From NCBI GenBank assembly GCA_001513285.1, contig LFTI01000101.1, forward strand, positions 1,309 through 65,308: a stretch of DNA of 64,000 nucleotides, in the 5' to 3' direction. The position numbers were made by a program, and so were the translations under genes. Within the stretch, counting starts at the first letter, position 1. Each line of letters opens with the position of its first letter. Below are positions 10,246 to 62,886 of the stretch, in pieces. This DNA is from Rikenellaceae bacterium DTU049 (lineage in GTDB: Bacteria; Bacteroidota; Bacteroidia; Bacteroidales; DTU049). The notes beneath the pieces were generated by a model that was not told where the DNA came from, made no database searches, and saw nothing but the letters and a program-made list of their open reading frames with translations.

Positions 10246-10430
10246 AAACTTACTAAGAAAAATATTAACAAAGCCAATTTAATCTATATTATTTAAGTTT
10301 TTAATTATAATATTGCTATTTTAGATAAATTAAATATGGTTTTATAACGTTTTATATGGACAAGGATTAAAATATTTTTTTTATTTAAAAATTTTTTATA
10401 ATTTAGCTATGTAAAACCGTAAAAAATTAA

Positions 10431-12107
10431 ATGGATATGAAAAATTCAAAATTTACATCAATAAATACTCAGAAGGTAGCTCTGAGTCACTATGTGAGTA
10501 ATATTACATTTATTACAATACTTTTAGCATTAATATTATTTAATGGGGTCAATAATAAATCCCATGCCCAGGCACCAGCTATTGAATGGCAAAAATGCCT
10601 CGGCGGAACATCTGAAGATATTGCATACTCCATCCAGCAGACAAGTGATGGGGGATTTATTGTGGCTGGTGAAACATTGTCCAATGATGGCGATGTGTCG
10701 GGAAATCATGGAGGTAGAGACGCTTGGGTAGTGAAACTTAACAGTTCAGGGGATATTATATGGAAAAAATGCCTCGGCGGAACTGATCATGATTTTGCAT
10801 ACTCCATCCAGCAAACAAGTGATGGGGGATTTATTGTGGCTGGTTTAACAGGGTCCAATGATGGCGATGTGTCGGGAAATCATGGAGGTAGTGATGCTTG
10901 GGTAGTTAAACTTAACAGTTCAGGGGAAATTGAATGGCAAAAATGCCTCGGCGGTACAAATTATGATTTTGCATACTCCATCCAGCAGACAAGTGATGGG
11001 GGATTTATTGTGGCTAGTATTACAGGGTCCAATGATGGTGATGTGTCGGGGAATCATGGAGGTAGTGACTATTGGGTAGTGAAACTTAACAGTTCAGGGG
11101 GTATTGAATGGCAAAAATGCCTCGGCGGTACAAATAGTGATGGCGGAATATTTAATGATTATATATACTCCATTCAGCAGACAAGTGATGGAGGATTTAT
11201 TATGGCTTGTGAAACAATGTCCAATGACGGCGATGTATCGGGGAATCATGGATCTTATGACGCTTGGGTAGTGAAACTTAATAGTTTAGGGGATATTGAA
11301 TGGCAAAAATGCCTAGGCGGTACAAATAGGGATATTGCAAACTCCATCCAGCAAACAAGTGATGGGGGATTTATTGTGGCTGGCTCTACATCTTCCAATG
11401 ACGGCGATGTGTCGGGTAATCATGGATATGGTGACGCATGGGTAGTGAAACTTAATAGTTCAGGGGATATTGAATGGCAAAAATGCCTCGGTGGAACAAA
11501 TTCGGATTGGGCATACTCCATCCAGCAGACAAATGATAGTGGATTTATTGTGGCTGGTTACACACATTCCAATAACGGCGATGTATCAGGGAATCATGGA
11601 TATTATGACTATTGGGTAGTGAAACTTAACAGTTCAGGGGATATTGAATGGCAAAAATGTATTGGCGGTACAAATTATGAGTTTGCAAACTCCATTCAGC
11701 AGACAAGTGATGGTGGATTTATTGTGGCTGGTGAAACATTGTCCAATAACGGTGATGTGTCGGGAAATCATGGATATTCTGACGCTTGGGTAGTGAAATT
11801 AACAAATGAGCCGGATAGAATAAATGAAATAGAAAATTACAATTTACTCTCAATATACCCCAATCCATTCACAGAATATGCAATAATAACTTTTGATAAT
11901 CCTAAAAATGAAAAATACAAATTGCTTATTATAGATGTTACAGGAAAGGTAGTAATGGAAATTAATGAAATTTATGGAAATACAGTGGAAATTGATGGAA
12001 GTAATTTGTCTGCTGGGGTTTATGTGTTTGAACTGACCTGCGGTCAATGCGCTTTGGCAGGCGAAGAAGGGGAGAAGTTGTTCAGGGGGAGGTTTGTGGT
12101 AGAGTAA
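10431..12107 (+). CDS. secreted repeat (probable 7-bladed propeller) protein with T9SS type-A C-terminal sorting domain
   Basis: Signal peptide, then seven about 58-aa repeats 'WQKCLGGT..D.AYSIQQTSDGGFIVAG.T.SNDGDVSGNHG..DAWVVKLNSSGDIE'. A CTD follows ('LSIYPNPFTEYAIITF...SAGVYVFEL'). Confidence 0.85.
   Translation: MDMKNSKFTSINTQKVALSHYVSNITFITILLALILFNGVNNKSHAQAPAIEWQKCLGGTSEDIAYSIQQTSDGGFIVAGETLSNDGDVSGNHGGRDAWVVKLNSSGDIIWKKCLGGTDHDFAYSIQQTSDGGFIVAGLTGSNDGDVSGNHGGSDAWVVKLNSSGEIEWQKCLGGTNYDFAYSIQQTSDGGFIVASITGSNDGDVSGNHGGSDYWVVKLNSSGGIEWQKCLGGTNSDGGIFNDYIYSIQQTSDGGFIMACETMSNDGDVSGNHGSYDAWVVKLNSLGDIEWQKCLGGTNRDIANSIQQTSDGGFIVAGSTSSNDGDVSGNHGYGDAWVVKLNSSGDIEWQKCLGGTNSDWAYSIQQTNDSGFIVAGYTHSNNGDVSGNHGYYDYWVVKLNSSGDIEWQKCIGGTNYEFANSIQQTSDGGFIVAGETLSNNGDVSGNHGYSDAWVVKLTNEPDRINEIENYNLLSIYPNPFTEYAIITFDNPKNEKYKLLIIDVTGKVVMEINEIYGNTVEIDGSNLSAGVYVFELTCGQCALAGEEGEKLFRGRFVVE
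10587..11822 (+). repeat. coding tandem repeat, 7 units (six of 174 bp, one of 192 bp)
   Basis: Unit starts ('tggcaaaaatgcct') are at 10587, 10761, 10935, 11109, 11301, 11475 and 11649. Nucleotide similarity between units is high. Confidence 0.9.
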
Positions 12108-12682: not shown

Positions 12683-12721
12683 GTTATAGAACTTTAAATA
12701 TAAATAATTTTAAGAAAAAAT

Positions 12722-12859
12722 AAAAAAATTTTTTTATTTAAAAAGTATTTATTAATTTTGCAAAGTCAAAAACCCTAAAAACAAAAAGATATGAAAAAAT
12801 TAGCAATTTTAGTTTTTGTAGCAATGATTGCTGTATCATTCAGCAGTTGCCAAAAAGAA
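12722..12859 (+). repeat. promoter/5'UTR/lipoprotein-signal module, copy 1 of 4
   Basis: Near-identical to 23138..23273 (about 7 substitutions by manual alignment). Contains the -7 box taattttg and encodes MKKLAILVFVAMIAVSFSSCQKE. Confidence 0.85.
12753..12760 (+). promoter_or_regulatory. Bacteroidota-type -7 promoter box (TAnnTTTG)
   Basis: 'taattttg' lies about 30 nt upstream of the ATG at 12791. Confidence 0.45.
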
Positions 12860-14975: not shown

Positions 14976-15233
14976 ATGCCCATAACTACTGGCGAGGTAT
15001 TTCGCACAGATTGCCCATCTGCAAACTCTACTTATTGGCGTATGTTTAGAGGTGGTTCTGAAATAGCAAGATTTTATAATCTATCCACAGACTATAACTT
15101 ACGAATTGAGACATATTCTAAGGGGGGTAATATATTATTAAATCCCGCACAGATAACACGAATGATTATAACAGATGGAAATTTCCCAAGTACTCAACAA
15201 GGTTATGTTGGAATATATAGAAATTTAATCTAA
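14976..15233 (+). pseudogene. 5' fragment of a paralog of the tail-fibre-like gene 16946..20776
   Basis: 14991..15212 aligns with 17198..17419 with 11 substitutions and no indels (manual alignment). The fragment has no signal peptide, and homology ends abruptly at 'GYVGI'. Confidence 0.7.
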
Positions 15234-15305: not shown

Positions 15306-16820
15306 ATGAAAAAACAAAAATTTGCATTATTTATTTTATTTATTTCTTTTATGTTAGTATTTGGAAAATGTACTATTGCCCAAAACAATCCTGACCTCAA
15401 ACGTACCTGGCATTGGTATTTTGGAAAAGGCGCAGGTATTGATTTTAGCAGTGGCCAGGCAGTTGCTGATACTAATAGTAAAAGTTGGACAGTTAGGAAA
15501 ACTGCTGTAATGTCTGATACAGCAGGAAATTTTTTATTTTATGTTGCTGGTGAAGTTATTCCAGGGGTAAGCAATTATATGCATGTGTGGAATAAAAATC
15601 ATAATATTATGCAAAATGGAGAGTATATATTACCAAATAAATATCCAGAGCCTATGAATGGTGCTGTTATTATACCCAAACCGGGCAGTGATAATTTTTA
15701 CTACATTTTTACTGTAGATGACTGTTTTAATTCCTATGCCGATGGTTTTCGTTATTCTATTGTTGATATGAGTGCAAATGGGGGATTGGGTGAAGTTACT
15801 GAAAAAAGAATATTAATCCGTGACAATGTTGCTGAAATATTAGGGGCAATTAAACATTCAAATAATACTGATTACTGGGTAATAGTTCATGAATTATATA
15901 CAAATAAATTTCTTGCTTATCTTATAACAAATGGAGGAATTTCCACAAATCCTATAATTACAAATATTGGATATTGGTCAAATAGTAATATTTATAATTC
16001 TTATAATAGTAAGGGACAAGAAATAATTTTTAGTCTAAATGGGGAAAAAATAGGAATCTCTCTTTGTAATGACTATCAAAATACAGGAGATATTGACACA
16101 TTAGAATTATATAATTTTGATAGAACAACAGGCATCCTATCAAATAGAATATGCTTACCAGCTGATACTCTTATTCATTGTTTTTGTTTTTCCCCTAATA
16201 ACTCTAAACTATATATTGAATCTGGAGATATTACGGATAAAGTTCATCAATATGATTTAACTATTAATACTCCTGAGGCTATTTTAAACTCAAAAACATT
16301 AATTAAAGTAATTACGAATGCAAATAATAATGAATTCAATCAATCTTTTCAAATAGGACCTGATGGGAAAATATATGGTAGTTGTGAAATTACTGATATG
16401 TTAACAGTTATTGAAAATCCTAATGAACCCGGTTTATTATGTAATTATACCCCAAATGTTTTTTCTCTTAATGGTAAATATCCTTGTTGGGGATTTCCTA
16501 ATATAATTCAAAGTTATTATGATAATAGTATTACTAATGTTACAAATTTATTTTCTGATAATATTAAATTCCAGATTTATCCTAATCCATGCGAAGATTA
16601 CATTATTGTGCAAAATACAAATAATAATATTTATATTGATGGAATAAAAAATAATAATTTTAATTTCAAAATATATAACATATATGGTAAGTTATCAAAA
16701 GAAGGAATAACAAAAATTGGTGAAGAAATTAATGTAAGTAGCCTATCTCCTGGAATATATTTATTCCAGATATATATATCAAACACACAAATTATTAATT
16801 TTAAATTTTTAAAACTGTAA
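15306..16820 (+). CDS. secreted protein with T9SS C-terminal sorting domain
   Basis: 504 aa with a signal peptide. The N-terminal 'WHWYFGKGAGIDFSSG...MSDTAGNFLFYVAGE...VWNKNHNIMQNG' motif is common in Bacteroidota surface proteins. The CTD reads 'FQIYPNPCEDYIIV...SPGIYLFQI'. Confidence 0.75.
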   Translation: MKKQKFALFILFISFMLVFGKCTIAQNNPDLKRTWHWYFGKGAGIDFSSGQAVADTNSKSWTVRKTAVMSDTAGNFLFYVAGEVIPGVSNYMHVWNKNHNIMQNGEYILPNKYPEPMNGAVIIPKPGSDNFYYIFTVDDCFNSYADGFRYSIVDMSANGGLGEVTEKRILIRDNVAEILGAIKHSNNTDYWVIVHELYTNKFLAYLITNGGISTNPIITNIGYWSNSNIYNSYNSKGQEIIFSLNGEKIGISLCNDYQNTGDIDTLELYNFDRTTGILSNRICLPADTLIHCFCFSPNNSKLYIESGDITDKVHQYDLTINTPEAILNSKTLIKVITNANNNEFNQSFQIGPDGKIYGSCEITDMLTVIENPNEPGLLCNYTPNVFSLNGKYPCWGFPNIIQSYYDNSITNVTNLFSDNIKFQIYPNPCEDYIIVQNTNNNIYIDGIKNNNFNFKIYNIYGKLSKEGITKIGEEINVSSLSPGIYLFQIYISNTQIINFKFLKL

Positions 16821-16945: not shown

Positions 16946-19900
16946 ATGAAACAAAAAATTATTATTGCCTTTGTAGCATCGGTGATGCTACTGGCACAGC
17001 AACAAATTAATGCTCAACAATGGATCACAATGGGTAATTCTCAGAATCGATTTGCCCAACCCAGGAATACTGGAAACCAAGATAGTTGGATTCGCAGCAT
17101 TGGTGTCGGTTATTTTGATGGTGGTTACACAAATTCCTTTTTGCATGTTAATACCACTAATATGATATTACCGCATAATAGTAGCATCGCATCGTTAGGC
17201 GAAGTATTTCGCACAGATTGTCCATCTTCAAACTCTACTTACTGGCGTATGTTTAGAGGTGGTTTTGAAATAGCGAGATTATATAATCTATCCACAGACT
17301 ATAACTTGCGTATTGAGACATATTCTAAGGGGGGTAATATATTATTAAATCCCGCACAGATAACACGAATGATTATAACAGATGGAAATTCCCCAAGTAC
17401 TCAACAAGGTTATGTGGGTATAGGAGAAAATTTTTTAACACCACAATCATTACTTCACTTAAACGATGATCTTGCTGGCATAGCCAGTCCACATTCTACA
17501 TATTTGCAGATTACAAATTCAGGGACTACATCAAGCACAGGCAATACTTTAACAGATGGTTTCAAAGTTGGCATCACTCCTGATGGCACAGCTGAGCTGC
17601 GACAGCAGGAAATTAAACCGATAAATATATATACAAATAATACTCAACGAATGATAATAACAAACGATGCTACTACTGGCGAACCACGTGTGGGGATTGG
17701 AGGTTCTAATTTAACAACTCCACGTGCATATTTGCATATAGGTGATAATGCATGGCCAACCACGGGGTATCGGACATGGATGAACAAAGGTGTTTATATA
17801 CATTCCGGTTTAAATGAACAAAATCATGATAACATGTATATTGGGCTTAGATTTCTACCAGAACCTCCCCATGGCCGCACAGACGCAATTATTAACTGGG
17901 GAAATAACCCCATAGCTACCGCTGAACAAGACCGTCTGAGATTCGTATTTACAGCACCACCTGCATTGGGTCTTGTTGCAAGTTCTAACGATGGCCTTGA
18001 AGTAGCCCGCATGGTTAGTAATGGAAATCATGGTTTCGTGGGTATTGGTGATTTCTGGACACCAGATATTGAGCCAATAAATCAGTTAGATGTTAGAGGA
18101 AATACGGTAGTAGGAACCTCTTATGCAGGTTTAGTTACAGCACCCACAAATGGCATGTTAGTTCAGGGTTTTACAGGGATAGGTCCAACTTTTTCATCCG
18201 CTTATCATCCCAATCGTCAACTTGAAGTTTTTGATGCTAATGCTCCGCAATTACGATTAACACGGACCATTACTCATATTACACGCTATACAGACTTTGA
18301 AACCACTCCATATGGAAATCTTCGCATTAATCCAAGTGATACTGGATTGCTTCCACTTAATGGTAAAGTAGGCGTCAATCTTGCCAGTGGATTAGAACCC
18401 AAAAATACATTGGAGATAACTTCAGGTCCAACATCGCCATCACCAAGCGGTCTTCGATTTACAAATCTAACATGGTCATCACAAACAGTTCCAAATGGAG
18501 GTAATAATGGCGTTCTCACTGTTGATGCTGATGGTGATGTAATTTATGTGCAAGCACCAACAGGAACAGGTTTTGGACAAGCATGTAGTGCTATAGGTAA
18601 TCCTGGACAACTTACGCAAGATATTGAAGTTCCTACTAATACATTTAATTTTGTATTTACCAATAATCAAAATCAACTAGCTACACAAAATAATATAGGT
18701 ATCGGTTTACCAAATGCTAATTGTAATCCTATTGCAAAATTAGATGTATTACAACACTCAACTGACTCTGCTACTATTGGAATAAATGTTATTAATAATG
18801 ATCCAGGAAATGTATTTTATTTGGGTTCACCTCATGCGGGAGCATCTATTGGTATTTTATCAGAGGTTAATGGTATTAATACTACTGAAAATTCAATAAA
18901 TATTGCAGGTGGTTTTATTTCCAGTGGTGCTGATATTAATATATCTGGATTTTTTGAAACACCACATTTTTATGGCAATTATTATTTAAAAAATTTTGCT
19001 ATATATGTTCCTAGAGATAGAGGTAAAATACAATTTGGTGGTTCTACTTATAATAATGTCCCATATTTGTTAACTGTTTTTGGGGAGGCAGCAAAACCTG
19101 CTGGTGCTACATGGATTAATTTCTCTGATTCTTTATTTAAAACAAATATAATACCTTATAAAGATGGTTTAGATATCGTAAGAAAGATAAACCCTGTTTC
19201 TTTTAATTATAAAAAATTATTAGGAGTTTCTGAAAACAGACGATATGTTGGTACAATTGCACAAGAACTTGCTCAAATAGCACCTTATATGGTAGATACA
19301 GTAATGATGGTAATTGATAGCATTGATACAACAAAAAAGCCTGTTCTTACTTTAAATTCAGATCCATTTTTCTATTTGTCTATTAATGCCATAAAGGAGT
19401 TAGACAGCATTGTATCACAAATACAACGTCCACCATTACCTCCACAACTAATAGACCCTGCAAATGAAGCAACAGAAGCGTCACCTATTCCCGAATTTCA
19501 ATGGCATCATTCTTTTAGTGCTTTTGGTTACTATTTATATGTATCGACAACACCTGATACCAGCGGGCTCGTTTGTATCATTAATACTACTGATACAGTA
19601 GCTACAATATTAGGAATTGGCAAACGCGAAATTACAAGTGTAAATGAACAACAAACTCAACAAATACCTGTTCAAAGAGAGGAAATAGGTAGGCTAAATT
19701 GTGGCAATACTTATTACTGGTGGGTTAAAGCATATAATCAATATGGATACAGCAGCCCATCAGAGACATGGGATTTTACAACCGCACTACTACCCGAGCC
19801 ACCACTATTATCCTTACCTGCTAATGGCACTACTGATATAGAACAAGATTCTGTAGTTTTATCATGGCACTCACCCCAAGGTGCAGCTTATTATGTGGTA

Positions 19901-20776
19901 TATCTATCAACAACTCCTGATGAAACCGGTAGATTAATGAGTAGCGTTGCAGTAGCAGATACTTCTTATATATTTTATAACCTTGAATATGGAACAACTT
20001 ACTACTGGTGGGTTGTAGCTTTCAATGAATATAAATGTGAAAGTGGAAAATCGGAGGTAAATAATTTCACCACTGAACCACAGCCATTAAAATTTTCTGA
20101 ACCTATTCTTTCTGATGAGAATTTTAAAACAAATGTGACACCTTATACTGATGCACTATCAAAAACATTGCAATTACAAGGTACGTATTTTTATTGGGAT
20201 TTAGAAAATTTCCCTGCTTTAAAGGATAGTTCTCGTCAAATAGGTCTAATAGCACAGGATGTCGTGCCTGTTATTCCTGAGGTAGTATTTACTGATACAC
20301 AGGGATACAAATATATTGACTATAATCGCATCGTTCCTGTGCTGATAGAAGCAGTAAAAGAATTGAACGCAAAAGTAGATGCTCTGCAAGCAATAGTAAA
20401 TGCCTGTTGTGATACTATGTACACAAAAACAAACCAGAATACTGATGGACAAATTAATGATTTACAAATTAATGATTTACAACGAACAATTTATTATATT
20501 GAATTAACAAGTAATATTATTGTGCTTGAACAGAACGTTCCTAATCCTTTCAAGGAAAGTACCATTATTAACTACATTATTCCTGATGATGTCGGCTTTG
20601 CTCAAATTATCTTCTCTGATTACAGCGGTAAAGTTTTAAGAATTGTTGATATAAAAGAAAAAGGTCCAGGACAGTTGCATGTCTTTGCACCAAACCTGAG
20701 CAATGGCACCTATATTTATTCACTTATTATTGATGGCAAAGTTGTGGAAACAAAGAAAATGGTAAAAATGGAATAA
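16946..20776 (+). CDS. phage-tail-fibre-like surface protein with two S74-type intramolecular chaperone domains, two FN3-like modules and a T9SS CTD
   Basis: 1276 aa with a signal peptide. It has recurrent 'RM.IT..G.VGIG...P...LH' fibre-type repeats, two 'SD..FKTN..PY...L...GLIAQ(D/E)' domains and the CTD 'LEQNVPNPFKESTIINY...NGTYIYSLI'. Confidence 0.8.
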   Translation: MKQKIIIAFVASVMLLAQQQINAQQWITMGNSQNRFAQPRNTGNQDSWIRSIGVGYFDGGYTNSFLHVNTTNMILPHNSSIASLGEVFRTDCPSSNSTYWRMFRGGFEIARLYNLSTDYNLRIETYSKGGNILLNPAQITRMIITDGNSPSTQQGYVGIGENFLTPQSLLHLNDDLAGIASPHSTYLQITNSGTTSSTGNTLTDGFKVGITPDGTAELRQQEIKPINIYTNNTQRMIITNDATTGEPRVGIGGSNLTTPRAYLHIGDNAWPTTGYRTWMNKGVYIHSGLNEQNHDNMYIGLRFLPEPPHGRTDAIINWGNNPIATAEQDRLRFVFTAPPALGLVASSNDGLEVARMVSNGNHGFVGIGDFWTPDIEPINQLDVRGNTVVGTSYAGLVTAPTNGMLVQGFTGIGPTFSSAYHPNRQLEVFDANAPQLRLTRTITHITRYTDFETTPYGNLRINPSDTGLLPLNGKVGVNLASGLEPKNTLEITSGPTSPSPSGLRFTNLTWSSQTVPNGGNNGVLTVDADGDVIYVQAPTGTGFGQACSAIGNPGQLTQDIEVPTNTFNFVFTNNQNQLATQNNIGIGLPNANCNPIAKLDVLQHSTDSATIGINVINNDPGNVFYLGSPHAGASIGILSEVNGINTTENSINIAGGFISSGADINISGFFETPHFYGNYYLKNFAIYVPRDRGKIQFGGSTYNNVPYLLTVFGEAAKPAGATWINFSDSLFKTNIIPYKDGLDIVRKINPVSFNYKKLLGVSENRRYVGTIAQELAQIAPYMVDTVMMVIDSIDTTKKPVLTLNSDPFFYLSINAIKELDSIVSQIQRPPLPPQLIDPANEATEASPIPEFQWHHSFSAFGYYLYVSTTPDTSGLVCIINTTDTVATILGIGKREITSVNEQQTQQIPVQREEIGRLNCGNTYYWWVKAYNQYGYSSPSETWDFTTALLPEPPLLSLPANGTTDIEQDSVVLSWHSPQGAAYYVVYLSTTPDETGRLMSSVAVADTSYIFYNLEYGTTYYWWVVAFNEYKCESGKSEVNNFTTEPQPLKFSEPILSDENFKTNVTPYTDALSKTLQLQGTYFYWDLENFPALKDSSRQIGLIAQDVVPVIPEVVFTDTQGYKYIDYNRIVPVLIEAVKELNAKVDALQAIVNACCDTMYTKTNQNTDGQINDLQINDLQRTIYYIELTSNIIVLEQNVPNPFKESTIINYIIPDDVGFAQIIFSDYSGKVLRIVDIKEKGPGQLHVFAPNLSNGTYIYSLIIDGKVVETKKMVKME
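19121..19425 (+). other. endosialidase-chaperone (peptidase S74)-like domain 1, internal
   Basis: 'FSDSLFKTNIIPYKDGLDIVRKINPVSFNYKK...YVGTIAQELAQIAPYMV...INAIKELDSIV'. Confidence 0.65.
20108..20412 (+). other. endosialidase-chaperone (peptidase S74)-like domain 2
   Basis: 'LSDENFKTNVTPYTDALSKTLQLQGTYFYWD...QIGLIAQDVVPVIPEVV...YIDYNRIVPVLIEAVKELNAKVDAL'. Confidence 0.75.
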
Positions 20777-20798
20777 TTATCAGTTCTTTGATAAGTTT

Positions 20799-20834
20799 AA
20801 AAAGGGATTATGATAAAACATAATCCCTTTTTAA
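20799..20834 (+). terminator. intrinsic terminator-like hairpin
   Basis: 'aaagggattatg-ataaaa-cataatcccttt' followed by tt, 23 nt after the stop of 16946..20776. Confidence 0.6.
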
Positions 20835-20899
20835 AAGTTTTCTCTAAAAAATATTTTTATCAACTTAATTTGTGAATTTAAAATTCACTTTTTTTTTTT

Positions 20900-20976: not shown

Positions 20977-21153
20977 ATTATTTTACAATAATCAAAATTC
21001 ATTTGTCGTTATTAAAAAAAATTAAAAGAGGTAAAGAACTAAATGTTTTAAAAAATTTAAAATTTTTCAATTAATAAAGGTATTAAATTAAACATTTTAT
21101 CTGCTGTTTTAATTTTATATGGAGCATGTGAATAAATAAAATAATCAATAATT

Positions 21154-21471: not shown

Positions 21472-21537
21472 AATTTTGTAAATCTATAATATATTTAACC
21501 TAAGCTGTTTAAATATAAGGAATCATCATATAAAAAA

Positions 21538-21665
21538 GAAAAAAATTTTTTTATCTCAAAACAATTACTAATTTTGAACCATCAAAACTCTAAAAAATTA
21601 AAAGATATTAAAAAATTAGTAATTTTAGTTTTTGCAGTAATGATAGATGACATCTCTTGTGAATA
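21538..21665 (+). repeat. promoter/5'UTR/lipoprotein-signal module, copy 2 of 4 (decayed)
   Basis: Same layout as 12722..12859, but the start codon reads ata and the signal-peptide frame ends after about 20 codons. The OMP gene begins 35 nt downstream. Confidence 0.7.
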
Positions 21666-48821: not shown

Positions 48822-49829
48822 TTAAATGTTATAGATTAAATATGTTTTTGACATCAAAGCACTGTACCGCTCCCATGCCCGCCTATCCGACGCCGCCAAA
48901 TTCAGCAACCTCCCTGTATCTTCTATAATCTTCTCCGCCAAATACTTACCTCTCACTACAAACCACATTATGTAGTTTGTCAAATACTTTGTCGCCACTC
49001 CTCGAAACTTATAATATATCCAGCCAACAAAATCTGTTATCTTCTTATGAATAGTTGATACACTGTATATACCATCTTTCTTCTTTTTCTTAGAAGATAT
49101 CTCTTTGTGTTTGATGTGCTCAGCATTAACTGTTTTGAAAGCTTTTTTATCGCTGCCGCATACCACTGAATTCTCAGATATCCTATATTTTAGAAAATCT
49201 GATATGTGTTCAGCCTGAACTCGTTTATCTTCTAATTTTTTGAACAAAATATTTCCACTTCTATCTGTGGCAGCTATTATTGCTACTTTCTCTGGCTTCT
49301 TTTTCGTTAGCTTTTTTAATTCTTTCTTGTCTCGTCTCTTTTTACCTTTTTCAGAATAATTCATTAGAAGCTCCTCTAATTCTACTATTCCAAAGAAATT
49401 AATATTGTCTTCAAAAGATTGCAAAGCACAGAGAATTCTATGTCGCCAAAAGAAACTCGTTGTGAGGCTAATATTCACAATTCTTGCACATTCTCTCAAG
49501 CTCATTCCTGCACTCATACATTTGATATATTCGAGCATTTTGCCCTTTTCATGAACCCCATACATAAAAGTGCCAGTGGTAACTCTAAATTGTCTTCCAC
49601 AGTTTTTGCAACGGTAATTTTGAACTCCACTTTGCAAACCGTTTTTAATTACATGGCTGCTATTGCAATCTGGACAAAGTACACCAGTAGACATAGCTTT
49701 GATCTCTTGATAATCTACGACATCTTTGCCTTCTTCGATCATTTGATCATAAAGATTGTCGTAAAACTCGCGTGTACCTTCCTTAGTAAGGGTAAATATT
49801 TTAGTAGGGTTTTCAAATATTTTATCCAT
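48822..49829 (-). CDS. IS1595-like transposase
   Basis: Zn-ribbon 'CPDCNSSH...YRCKNCGRQF', HTH 'MSLRECARIVNISLTTSFFWRHRI' and a DDE-type core ('GIVELEEL', 'VVCGSDKKAF', 'ITDFVGW'). The ATG at 49829 is preferred because a -7 box lies between it and the track start at 49871. Confidence 0.8.
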   Translation of the reverse strand: MDKIFENPTKIFTLTKEGTREFYDNLYDQMIEEGKDVVDYQEIKAMSTGVLCPDCNSSHVIKNGLQSGVQNYRCKNCGRQFRVTTGTFMYGVHEKGKMLEYIKCMSAGMSLRECARIVNISLTTSFFWRHRILCALQSFEDNINFFGIVELEELLMNYSEKGKKRRDKKELKKLTKKKPEKVAIIAATDRSGNILFKKLEDKRVQAEHISDFLKYRISENSVVCGSDKKAFKTVNAEHIKHKEISSKKKKKDGIYSVSTIHKKITDFVGWIYYKFRGVATKYLTNYIMWFVVRGKYLAEKIIEDTGRLLNLAASDRRAWERYSALMSKTYLIYNI

Positions 49830-49845
49830 AAAAATAATTTTTTTG

Positions 49846-49853
49846 CAAATATA
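49846..49853 (-). promoter_or_regulatory. Bacteroidota-type -7 promoter box (TAnnTTTG) for the transposase
   Basis: The minus strand reads 'tatatttg' 16 nt upstream of the ATG at 49829. Confidence 0.4.
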
Positions 49854-50028
49854 TGAATTTTTATTATACAAAAAACTTGATTTTTAATAACATGAAAATA
49901 TTACCATACCCATTCCCCTACCCCACTTCTCCTTATTCTTATCCCCAACCTCTTATTAACATTTTTTACATATTTTTATACTTTTTGATTTTTTATTTAC
50001 TTTTGCATTAACAATTAAATTTACAATT

Positions 50029-60843: not shown

Positions 60844-62886
60844 ATGCGAAAACTATTTATATCTCTGTTATTACTATTTTCAGTGCAATTATTTAGTGCA
60901 CCAATTAGTAAAAATATTGCTTATAAAATTGCGGAATATTATTTGCAATTAATAGATAAAAGCACAGAAAAAATTGTAGTTACTGAAGCTAATTTACCAA
61001 AATGGTTAGCAATTACTGATGAATTATATGTTTTTGAAAGTAATAATGCCTATGTAATAATATCTGGTGATGATGCTGCTGTGCCTATATTGGCATATTC
61101 GGATGAAGGTACATTCTCTAATAAAGATAGCATATGCCCAGGTGTAACTATTTTTTTGACACAATATAAAACTCAGATCAAAAATATTAGACTAAATAAT
61201 CTATCTGCTACAAATGAAATCAAAGCACAATGGGATGCTTTGATTAATAAAAACTACAAATCTAGAACTCAAGTAGGACCATTATTATATGCTAACTGGA
61301 ATCAGGATTGCGGTTATAATGCACTTTGCCCCGCAGATCCAGATGGACCATGTGGACACGTTTATGCTGGATGTGTAGCTACAGCTATGGCTATGAATAT
61401 GTTTTATTATAGATATCCCACCAATCCTACAGGTTTTGTTATTCATTATACACAAGGGTATGGTACATTAACAGTTAATTTGAATCAACAAACTTATGAT
61501 TATGATAAAATGCCCAGTGCTATTATAGATTCTAGCTATGAGATTGCCAAATTAATTTATCATTGTGGTGTAGCCGTTAAAATGGGATATAGTCCTGATG
61601 GCTCTGGAGCTCAATTAAGTACTGCTGCAAGTAAAATGAAAAATAATTTTGGTTATAATTCTAACTTAAGTCTTAAATATCGTGATGGATATTTAGATAA
61701 TGAATGGGCTACAATGCTTAAAGAACAACTAGATCAGAAAATAATTCTACAATATGCTGCTTTTAACGAAAATAGTGGGCATGCATTCATATGTGATGGA
61801 TATTCAGATAATGATTATTTTCATTTCAATTGGGGATGGAGTGGGTATTATAATGGATTTTTTTACATTAATAACTTAAATCCTGGATATAATTTTGAAT
61901 ATGGACATCAAGCTATTTTTGATTGTTATCCCGTATCCACAAACTATTCATGCTCAAATAATGTATTAACAAGTCATGAAGGTTCTATAACATCTAGTGC
62001 ACCAAATTTATCTAATTATGAAAATAATATGAATTGCACATGGCTAATAAATATTCCTGATACTTTAGCTAGAATTACTTTAACATTTAGATATTTCTCT
62101 ACATTGGCTGGTGATACTTTATATATCTACAATGGTAATGATGATAATGGGCAAATATTATACAAATTTTCTGGCGACAATGTACCAACAACATTAGATA
62201 TTTATCATAATCCAATTTTTATAAAATTTGTATCTGATAGCGTAGACACAGAAAAAGGTTTTTTGATAGATTATCATGGTAAACCAGCTGATTTTTGCAA
62301 AATTTTGACCATATATAATAATCCCACCGAAATTGTTTTATCCGATGGAAGTGGCTCCCATAATTATAGACCAAATTCAAGCTGTAGATGGTTCATAAAT
62401 AATAATGAAGGCTCAATATATAATTATAATCCTACTCTATTTGACCTTTCTTTTGGTGACACACTTAAAATTTATGAAAGAATCAATAGCACAGATGTTT
62501 TGCTATATAATTTTCATAAAAATAATCAAGCTCATTCATTCTCTTCTAATGCATCTAGAGTAATATTTTATTTTATTACAGACGATACATATCAAGCAGA
62601 TGGTTTTGAATTTACTATTAGTAAACAAATGTCTATAACAAACTATCAAGATTATGAAGATCTAAAATATTCTATTATTGATGATAATTTATATATATGG
62701 ATAAATTCCAATCTCGATAATGATATTACTTTATACTCACTTTCTGGTCAAGAAATTTATCATATTTCATCATCAGCTAATAATGATAAACCCATTATAG
62801 TTCCCTTTAATTATAGCAGTGGTATATATTTTCTCAAACAACAAAATAGCCAAAAAACTAATCTATTTAAAATTGCCAAATTTTAA
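60844..62886 (+). CDS. C10 (streptopain/SpeB-like) cysteine peptidase with two CUB-like domains and a T9SS CTD
   Basis: Signal peptide and an inhibitor-like prodomain. Catalytic region 'WNQDCGYNALCP...YAGCVATAMA' and 'SGHAFICDGY...FHFNWGWSG'. Two modules of about 110 aa show the CUB pattern ('NCTWLINIP...ITLTF.YF...GDTLYIYNG...GFLIDY'). CTD 'SSGIYFLKQ'. Confidence 0.8.
   Translation: MRKLFISLLLLFSVQLFSAPISKNIAYKIAEYYLQLIDKSTEKIVVTEANLPKWLAITDELYVFESNNAYVIISGDDAAVPILAYSDEGTFSNKDSICPGVTIFLTQYKTQIKNIRLNNLSATNEIKAQWDALINKNYKSRTQVGPLLYANWNQDCGYNALCPADPDGPCGHVYAGCVATAMAMNMFYYRYPTNPTGFVIHYTQGYGTLTVNLNQQTYDYDKMPSAIIDSSYEIAKLIYHCGVAVKMGYSPDGSGAQLSTAASKMKNNFGYNSNLSLKYRDGYLDNEWATMLKEQLDQKIILQYAAFNENSGHAFICDGYSDNDYFHFNWGWSGYYNGFFYINNLNPGYNFEYGHQAIFDCYPVSTNYSCSNNVLTSHEGSITSSAPNLSNYENNMNCTWLINIPDTLARITLTFRYFSTLAGDTLYIYNGNDDNGQILYKFSGDNVPTTLDIYHNPIFIKFVSDSVDTEKGFLIDYHGKPADFCKILTIYNNPTEIVLSDGSGSHNYRPNSSCRWFINNNEGSIYNYNPTLFDLSFGDTLKIYERINSTDVLLYNFHKNNQAHSFSSNASRVIFYFITDDTYQADGFEFTISKQMSITNYQDYEDLKYSIIDDNLYIWINSNLDNDITLYSLSGQEIYHISSSANNDKPIIVPFNYSSGIYFLKQQNSQKTNLFKIAKF

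Follow-up and report, generated by a model that had tools for sequence, protein, structure and literature searches.

Bdellovibrio bacteriovorus has 21 chromosomally encoded mosaic adhesive trimeric (MAT) fibres, each made of a signal peptide, an invariant β-rich N-terminal domain of ~130 residues and a long trimeric fibre (Caulton et al., PMC10769870). The N-terminal domain is thought to bind an element of the cell surface, the fibres carry a capping-loop motif (V-G-G/N-π-x-x-P-x-x-x-L), and 13 of them have a C-terminal S74 domain bearing SDxxxK, for which self-cleavage has been shown in Bd3182 at S782 (PMC10769870). In endoNF, S911 and K916 form the catalytic dyad of this domain and cleavage is triggered by trimerisation, and in MYRF/MrfA the S74 domain splits an N-terminal functional trimer from a C-terminal part that serves for targeting or anchoring (PMC3828593). 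Here we describe a gene of Rikenellaceae bacterium DTU049 whose product appears to join S74 domains of this kind to a secretion system of type IX (T9SS). It lies in a stretch of 64,000 nt (assembly GCA_001513285.1, contig LFTI01000101.1, positions 1,309 to 65,308), which we call the window, and occupies the open reading frame (ORF) 16946..20776 (+), with 1276 codons for amino acids, exactly as an initial annotation made from the sequence alone had given it. Judged by its layout, the nearest characterised system is the S74 subgroup of the MAT fibres, of which Bd3182 is an example, and by the same analogy we regard the protein as the Bacteroidota counterpart of the S74-type MAT fibres.

The predicted order of the gene product is signal peptide, N-terminal domain, β-rich fibre region, first S74 domain, two FN3 domains, second S74 domain, helix, Cys-Cys pair, linker and T9SS C-terminal sorting domain (CTD). 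We consider it probable that this is a T9SS-exported, S74-bearing trimeric fibre of the cell surface, cellular and not viral. S74 fibres and T9SS cargo are each already known separately, and what the gene presents is their combination. The C-terminal signal of T9SS cargo is believed to stay in place up to the cell surface, where the PorU sortase takes it off, and the family described here puts a domain that cleaves itself in all tested relatives directly upstream of that signal. Our search of the full-text literature found no paper linking S74 to the T9SS or describing Bacteroidota S74 proteins; the papers found to name both the T9SS and tail fibres deal with T9SS cargo encoded by phages and with BACON proteins rather than with S74. 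New here are also a T9SS cargo gene upstream of the fibre gene in ~19 loci and a Cys pair that follows the last S74 domain in most relatives. This conserved partner gene, the Cys pair and a gene fragment further upstream all go beyond the initial annotation.

Two stretches of the protein match the Pfam family PF13884 (Peptidase_S74) with 89.7 bits against a cut-off of 22, and local jackhmmer searches place them at residues 726-834 and 1055-1149 (E ~1e-36), in agreement with the two domains that the initial annotation had read at 19121-19425 and 20108-20412. We delimit the first at residues 727-835 (19124..19450, +), using Pfam, jackhmmer and a profile search, with high AlphaFold2 confidence, and the second at residues 1056-1153 (20111..20404, +), using Pfam, jackhmmer, PDB searches and AlphaFold2. 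Both copies start with SD-x-x-x-K and so carry a Ser/Lys(+5) dyad (S727...K732 and S1056...K1061), and the S, D and K of this motif are invariant columns in the alignments of the S74 copies. Searches of the PDB with the sequence of either copy gave weak matches; a profile built from both copies of several relatives retrieved a tail fibre (8jov, 2e-13), the long tail fibre of phage S16 (6f45, 2.4e-12), the ICA domain of MYRF (7dc3, 3.3e-11), the neck appendage of GA-1 (3gud, 6.5e-5) and also T5 pb1 (8hqz). The 3gud chain starts with SDERHK, and in the profile alignment its Ser falls on S727 and S1056; if that chain is the released domain, these two residues would take the position of the new N-terminus after cleavage.

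The two copies differ in their surroundings. The first is internal and follows the fibre-like region, which is modelled with low confidence; the second is preceded by FN3 and followed by 120 further residues that include the CTD, so that neither stands at the C-terminal end of the precursor. In an AlphaFold2 model of residues 700-1276, made with 46 aligned relatives (mean predicted local distance difference test score, pLDDT, 83), the first copy ends in a helix and the second closes in a long one of ~36 residues (segment residues 427-462). The second copy is the most conserved part of the whole protein (identity 0.47). Within one protein the two copies are ~25% identical, while second copies are 40-60% identical across proteins, which points to an S74 duplication of long standing in which selection has maintained both dyads. 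S-D-x-x-x-K is kept in both copies of all 28 double-S74 homologues, and in every S74 domain found in the family; the Ser-Asp dipeptide that the initial annotation had named for cleavage is part of this motif. From these residues we predict autoproteolysis at both S727 and S1056, with the chances for and against about evenly balanced.

The stretch between the two S74 domains (19451..20110, +) opens with a Pro-rich linker and closes with a short one; the two domains that they enclose (~835-946 and ~954-1043) are FN3-like, as recognised by Pfam, PDB, AlphaFold2 and Foldseek. The Pfam fn3 family matches residues 963-1028 (29.7 bits, E 7.8e-7), the model has confident β-sandwiches in both positions, and Foldseek against the PDB returns tandem FN3 structures with E down to 5e-13; titin FN3 is among the PDB matches. 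This region is the least conserved of the protein (identity 0.12-0.17, occupancy 0.46-0.61). The helix that closes the second S74 domain ends in Cys1154-Cys1155 (20405..20410, +), and a matching Cys pair follows the last S74 domain in 46 of the 57 relatives that have both S74 and CTD, as CC in 27 and as C-x7-9-C in 19. The pair could form an interchain disulfide knot in a parallel S74-CTD trimer. A possible parallel is the C-terminal cysteine annulus of the P22 tailspike, which is reported to take part in the auto-chaperone function (PMC3357383). Next come an Asn/Gln/Thr-rich linker (residues 1156-1193; 20411..20524, +), modelled as disordered at ~1157-1188 (pLDDT 33-42), and the type A CTD, residues 1194-1276 plus the stop codon (20525..20776, +), for which Pfam/NCBIfam, the alignment and AlphaFold2 were used. 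The model gives it as a β-sandwich of six strands (segment residues 506-575, pLDDT ~90-95), its invariant columns are L1194, Q1196, N1197, P1199, N1200, P1201, F1202, G1228, G1254 and Y1258, and PF18962 matches 25 of 25 aligned family C-termini (best E 2.4e-8), to which the window copy is at most 65% identical. The FN3-like modules and the sorting domain had both been read by the initial annotation, and both stand.

So does its Sec signal peptide, which covers residues 1-23 (16946..17014, +). By inspection, the N-terminus MKQK-IIIAFVASVMLLA-QQQINA/QQW lacks a lipobox Cys and shows the n, h and c regions expected of a Sec/signal peptidase I signal, with cleavage predicted at ...INA/QQW. The signal peptides of the homologues are alike and end in A-Q, Q25 being an invariant alignment column, and a Gln at or just after the cleavage site is usual in Bacteroidota signal peptidase I substrates. 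The N-terminal domain that follows (residues ~24-140, GEVFRTDCP...WRMFRGG; 17015..17365, +) is defined by invariant columns, among them G85, E86, F88, R89, T90, P93 and W100, and is a candidate cell-proximal docking domain. The next region, rich in Gly, Asn and Thr (residues 141-601; 17366..18748, +), is β-rich according to AlphaFold2 and the alignment, and carries five VGIG...P...L.[VI] motifs: the pattern [VI]G[IV][GN]-x(3-10)-P-x(3-4)-L-x-[VIL] occurs at residues 157, 249, 365, 475 and 584, against an average of 0.014 copies in shuffled sequences. The initial annotation had seen here about 550 residues of fibre-type repeats; the recurrence of the motif is well above chance, but what recurs are five modules of ~100 residues, each with one capping-loop-like motif, and not a continuous short-period repeat. 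Over the N-terminal ~700 residues the composition is 11% Gly, 10% Asn, 10% Thr and 1.4% Lys. The sole confident part of the N-terminal model is an all-β domain at ~205-385 (pLDDT 80-94), which holds the motifs that are the hallmark of the family (DNMY[IV]GL, DAIINWGNNP, DRLRFVFT and GLE[VI]ARM). Foldseek found nothing in the PDB at E<=1e-3 for this model, the top match being the fibre β-helix of Bdellovibrio Bd3182, a weak one at 2.7e-3. Conservation is higher in the N-terminal half than in the region ahead of the first S74 domain (residues 602-726; 18749..19123, +; pLDDT <50, identity to homologues 0.27), which, should the first S74 domain cleave, would form the mature fibre's C-terminal tip. 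Five relatives (P0027, P0028, P0033, P0038 and P0040) contain collagen triple-helix repeats (PF01391), which fit obligate trimers.

The G+C content of the fibre region is raised, as the initial annotation had noticed when it named foreign origin and strong amino-acid bias as the two explanations. It reaches 0.39 at 17-18 kb and 0.41 in the fibre region, where the ORF mean is 0.29. Codon positions 1 and 2 account for the excess (G+C at position 2, GC2, 0.48 vs 0.30), and G+C at position 3 (GC3) is near native, 0.23 against 0.185±0.043 for the genes of the window, that is, within about one standard deviation; the rise is thus one of amino-acid bias, and foreign origin of the stretch is rejected. 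Separately, the first 150 codons of the gene (16946-17395) have a GC3 of 0.31 against the same 0.185±0.043, and the rest of the gene is near the genomic value. This raised stretch includes a duplicated segment of 236 nt, described below, and may be due to gene conversion between paralogues.

This genome is not alone in having the architecture. A word-indexed search gave 75 fibre proteins, a truncated identical copy included. Nearly all come from uncultured Bacteroidota, a cultured carrier of a homologue being Brumimicrobium aurantiacum (P0043), and those that have a name at source are called 'tail fiber domain-containing protein' or 'T9SS C-terminal target domain-containing protein'. A CTD comes after nearly all S74 domains of the family, and 28 of the 74 other proteins have two S74 domains, with a spacer that varies from one to three FN3 domains through a second fibre segment of 165-447 residues (P0011, P0014, P0017, P0056, P0027, P0028 and P0033) to almost nothing, the two domains being directly tandem with a gap of 3-5 residues in P0012, P0031 and P0040. 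An exhaustive HMMER run with the N-terminal 701 residues returned 1097 cluster representatives at E<=1e-3, of which 443 reached E<=1e-10, and 185,579 species genomes scanned by pattern gave 36 loci, all in metagenome-assembled genomes (MAGs) of Bacteroidota (Bacteroidales, Flavobacteriales and Chitinophagales). We are thus dealing with a recurrent, sizeable Bacteroidota family of at least several hundred proteins. The same pattern scan over 2.9 million viral contigs found no relative of the N-terminal ~700 residues, and its matches were to S74 plus CTD or to CTD alone. One of these is a minimal cassette of 311 residues (L045 7701-8636; IMG/VR uncultivated virus genome 2731639221_000005) made of a signal peptide, ~80 residues, an S74 domain (SDARAK), a helix and a CTD. 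Its contig is classed as viral and also carries a portal-like gene (phrog_64); the protein could be phage-borne T9SS cargo or belong to a misclassified bacterial region.

Directly upstream of the fibre gene lies the partner gene (15306..16820, +), identified by Pfam, NCBIfam and the synteny of its homologues, which encodes a secreted protein of 504 residues with an N-terminal domain of ~400 residues and a type A CTD that scores above threshold (PF18962 33.5 bits, TIGR04183 36.7 bits). Homologues with 38-40% identity stand directly upstream of distant fibre homologues, whose own identity is only ~40%. By tblastn and phmmer, a partner homologue is immediately upstream of the fibre gene in ~19 of the fetched loci, among them L005 (8500-9927), L007 (6462-7994) and loci of the series L008-L041, often with gaps of 0-30 nt, and L010, L012 and L018 show tandem arrays of the forms partner-partner-fibre, fibre-partner-fibre and partner-fragment-partner-fibre. 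In the window no terminator-like site separates the two genes, and a terminator-like hairpin with a 17-bp stem and a T-rich run (20796..20835, +; sequence scan) begins 20 nt past the stop codon of the fibre gene; a sigma-70 promoter scan was uninformative, as expected in Bacteroidota. Apart from its CTD, the partner has no Pfam, NCBIfam or PDB match in its first ~400 residues, and a PDB profile search weakly suggests a β-propeller, at an insignificant E of ~0.7.

Upstream of the partner, an ORF of 85 residues (14976..15233, +) holds a partial copy of the fibre gene. Over 236 nt it is 93% identical to codons ~85-163 of the fibre gene (14991-15226 vs 17198-17433), with sharp ends to the similarity, and by a hand count from the alignment ~8 of the ~12 core differences are synonymous. 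Since tandem arrays of fibre and partner genes occur at other loci, we read the fragment as what probably remains of a paralogous fibre gene upstream, which would give a fibre-partner-fibre layout. The fibre gene is carried by 17 contigs, and in the four assemblies shown, one of which is the MAG GCA_012727615.1, it has the same neighbours and the same fragment.

The initial annotation had pointed out that a cut at the second S74 domain detaches the sorting signal and that a cut at the first releases the C-terminal third, and this puzzle is a real property of the architecture. We propose that, after Sec export, the S74 domains would align three chains, that the Cys pair may lock the C-terminal trimer, and that the CTDs would carry the assembly through the SprA/Sov translocon. 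The Ser-Lys dyads would then cut directly before S727 and S1056, shedding S74-FN3-FN3 (~37 kDa) and the second S74 domain with its helix and CTD (~25 kDa) and leaving a mature fibre of residues ~24-726 (~75 kDa). The secretion tag would in this way be removed at least partly by the cargo itself, and not by PorU alone. The mature fibre would most likely be held on the cell by its N-terminal domain, and the likeliest holder would be the upstream T9SS cargo of ~500 residues, presumably co-transcribed; that the fibre does dock on this partner is a tentative suggestion to which we give clearly less than even weight. A wider proposal, in our estimate somewhat less likely still, is that S74, coiled coil, Cys pair, linker and CTD form a self-removing T9SS export module, that fibre and partner make up a partner-anchored two-gene fibre system, and that the double-S74 proteins are polyproteins yielding two trimers. 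Autocatalytic removal of the tag after translocation would then amount to a PorU-independent maturation and release, with the partner anchored via its own CTD.

Several points weigh against this picture of a self-cleaving, T9SS-exported fibre. (i) Cleavage, trimerisation, secretion and localisation are what we infer for the family as a whole. (ii) For T9SS cargo, folding in the periplasm has been proposed to precede recruitment (PMC10202324), and if cleavage followed such folding the fibre would lose its CTD before export; cleavage would therefore have to be delayed past export, or the cut trimer would travel as a non-covalent complex. (iii) The second S74 domain cannot be a classical β-helix chaperone, because FN3, not a β-helix, precedes it. 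(iv) Of the two profiles that the initial annotation had named, PF13884 is matched far above its cut-off, but the window CTD taken alone stays below the other (TIGR04183, 20.7 bits vs 23) and also below PF18962 (19.1-20.5 bits vs 27), with E values of 3e-4 to 2e-3; we nevertheless take it as real, since all 25 homologous C-termini match PF18962. (v) The AlphaFold2 model of residues 26-730 is poor (mean pLDDT 58), so that the label 'fibre' comes mainly from family context, and the 36 BFVD matches of this model at E<=1e-3 (best 5e-8), the named ones being mostly phage tail fibres and S74 proteins, have TM-scores of only 0.1-0.17. (vi) The partner family has at least 568 members against 75 fibre proteins in the same kind of search, so that the partner is not dedicated to fibres, and the association of its presence with the fibre N-terminal domain (11/1 vs 3/5, Fisher p=0.018) is uncorrected for phylogeny.

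The alternative that survives best leaves out the cleavage. The S74 domains would then only trimerise the chains and set their register, releasing nothing; the C-terminus would be the anchor, attached covalently by PorU to anionic lipopolysaccharide (A-LPS), the coiled coil and FN3 domains would form a cell-proximal stalk, and the N-terminal region would be the distal tip. T9SS cargo anchored at the surface typically has FN3 or Ig spacers and, ahead of the CTD, a flexible linker, there is no β-helix upstream of the second S74 domain to be chaperoned, and the order S74-then-CTD is otherwise self-defeating if folding and cleavage are both periplasmic (PMC10202324). The Ser/Lys dyad is, however, invariant in both copies of the 28 double-S74 proteins, and nearly all relatives with a single S74 domain have it too, at overall identities of 25-45%, which is hard to explain without catalysis. 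To our knowledge, the tested S74 systems with SDxxxK (endoNF, MrfA/MYRF and Bd3182) all cleave themselves, and the better conservation of the N-terminal half compared with the region before the first S74 domain suits an anchoring N-terminal domain rather than a variable distal tip. We therefore hold this alternative unlikely.

Less likely again is that the protein is a polyprotein in which one CTD delivers two trimers, the N-terminal fibre and S74-FN3-FN3, with a second complete fibre as the second product in other relatives. The modular spacer between the S74 domains and the retention of both dyads in all these relatives would suit it, but the FN3 region, being the least conserved, looks more like a spacer than a payload, and the directly tandem S74-S74 proteins would release nothing between their two sites. 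Finally, that the gene is a phage or prophage tail-fibre gene, or a tailocin or extracellular contractile injection system (eCIS) fibre, that happens to sit in the window is very improbable, for although relatives are labelled 'tail fiber domain-containing protein', the BFVD matches are phage tail fibres, the S74 domain of L045 matches many PHROG tail-fibre families and the minimal signal peptide-S74-CTD protein shares its IMG/VR contig with a portal-like gene, the scanned ORFs hold no typical phage Pfam family and the flanks are genes for housekeeping and secreted proteins, a virion protein assembled in the cytoplasm needs neither a Sec signal peptide nor a T9SS CTD, GC3 is native, and the viral contigs hold no relative of the N-terminal 700 residues.

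The window itself is a piece of low-G+C bacterial chromosome, with genes for RNase Y, DnaJ, IMPDH, SurA-like peptidyl-prolyl isomerases, topoisomerase I and GyrA/ParC; the fibre locus is flanked by lipoprotein-like ORFs, several T9SS cargo genes, sugar epimerases and housekeeping genes. A prophage context was considered and rejected: there is no phage module, and none of the ORFs scanned matches a Pfam family characteristic of phage structure or replication. The only mobile-element-like gene noticed is an ISXO2-like (IS1595 family) transposase ORF at 48822-49871 (-), with a raised GC3 of 0.33, ~28 kb from the fibre gene. Besides the fibre protein, three ORFs of the window carry a CTD, the partner (15306-16820, 33.5-36.7 bits), 10431-12107 (45 bits) and 60844-62886 (23 bits), and SprA, PorV, PorU and GldKLMN did not turn up among the scanned ORFs, where no dedicated search for T9SS machinery was made. 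The cargo protein at 10431-12107 has 558 residues, six tandem repeats of 174 nt (58 residues) that are 64-90% identical to the reference copy and bear a weak likeness to SBBP/delta-60 β-propeller repeats, and the highest G+C (0.40) and GC skew of the window. In the product of the ORF at 60844-62886, a streptopain-like C10 peptidase is combined with an I69 inhibitor prodomain, with CUB domains and with the CTD, and a similar C10-CTD gene adjoins the fibre homologue P0003 (L005 15063-17699). Short AT-rich intergenic direct repeats of 69-76% identity (12716-12833 vs 21532-21649; also 10413-10454, 21025-21066 and 21584-21625) precede several genes for secreted proteins near the locus, and may be shared promoter or leader sequences, or due to chance.

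If the fibre is secreted and cleaved as proposed, the consequences depend on the order of the two events. Cleavage delayed past export would reveal how the action of an S74 domain can be timed; export of a non-covalent, already cut trimer would inform on the size and the state of the substrates that the T9SS accepts. The partner gene is a candidate surface receptor for fibres of this type.

Set against the systems already described, the protein shares something with each and has the full layout of none. With ordinary type A cargo of the T9SS, such as the gingipains or ChiA of F. johnsoniae, it has in common the Sec signal, a β-sandwich CTD of ~80 residues with the motif N-x-P-N-P-F, and the flexible linker before it. 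Described cargo loses its CTD to the PorU sortase, and our literature search found no described T9SS cargo in which the CTD directly follows a trimerisation domain that is autoproteolytic. With the phage chaperone domains (endoNF of K1F, GA-1 gp12, T5 pb1 and S16 gp37; PF13884) it shares the S74 family and fold, the Ser-Lys dyad and the helical bundle at the end of the domain; however, in phages these domains always stand at the C-terminus, do their work in the cytoplasm and are shed before the virion is assembled, whereas those of the window protein are internal and duplicated, and belong to a cellular protein exported by Sec and the T9SS with the secretion signal placed after them. As in the ICA domain of MYRF/MrfA, S74 would be used internally, as a self-cleaving release switch. 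Those proteins are eukaryotic and have a single S74 domain, their C-terminal part is a transmembrane anchor in the endoplasmic reticulum, and the part released is a DNA-binding domain.

The likeness is greatest with the MAT fibres. It is one of shared layout, the N-terminal domains being compared by description and the weak Foldseek match to Bd3182 being the only link of fold. Both kinds of protein are encoded by bacterial chromosomal genes, occur as several paralogues per genome, measure ~1000 residues, and have a signal peptide, a conserved N-terminal domain, a long β-rich fibre and an S74 domain with SDxxxK. The recurring VG..P...L motif of the window protein resembles the capping-loop motif of the MAT fibres, with a spacing from VG to P of 8-11 residues in the window protein and 4 in the MAT fibres. 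The S74 domain forms the C-terminal end of the MAT fibres, whereas in the window protein more sequence follows each S74 domain and a CTD follows the last. The window protein also differs in having two S74 domains per chain with FN3 between them, and a conserved partner gene upstream. Finally, the two belong to different phyla and would cross the outer membrane by different routes, so that the protein described here would extend the bacterial use of phage-type trimeric fibres as surface adhesins from Bdellovibrio to a second phylum and to another secretion route.

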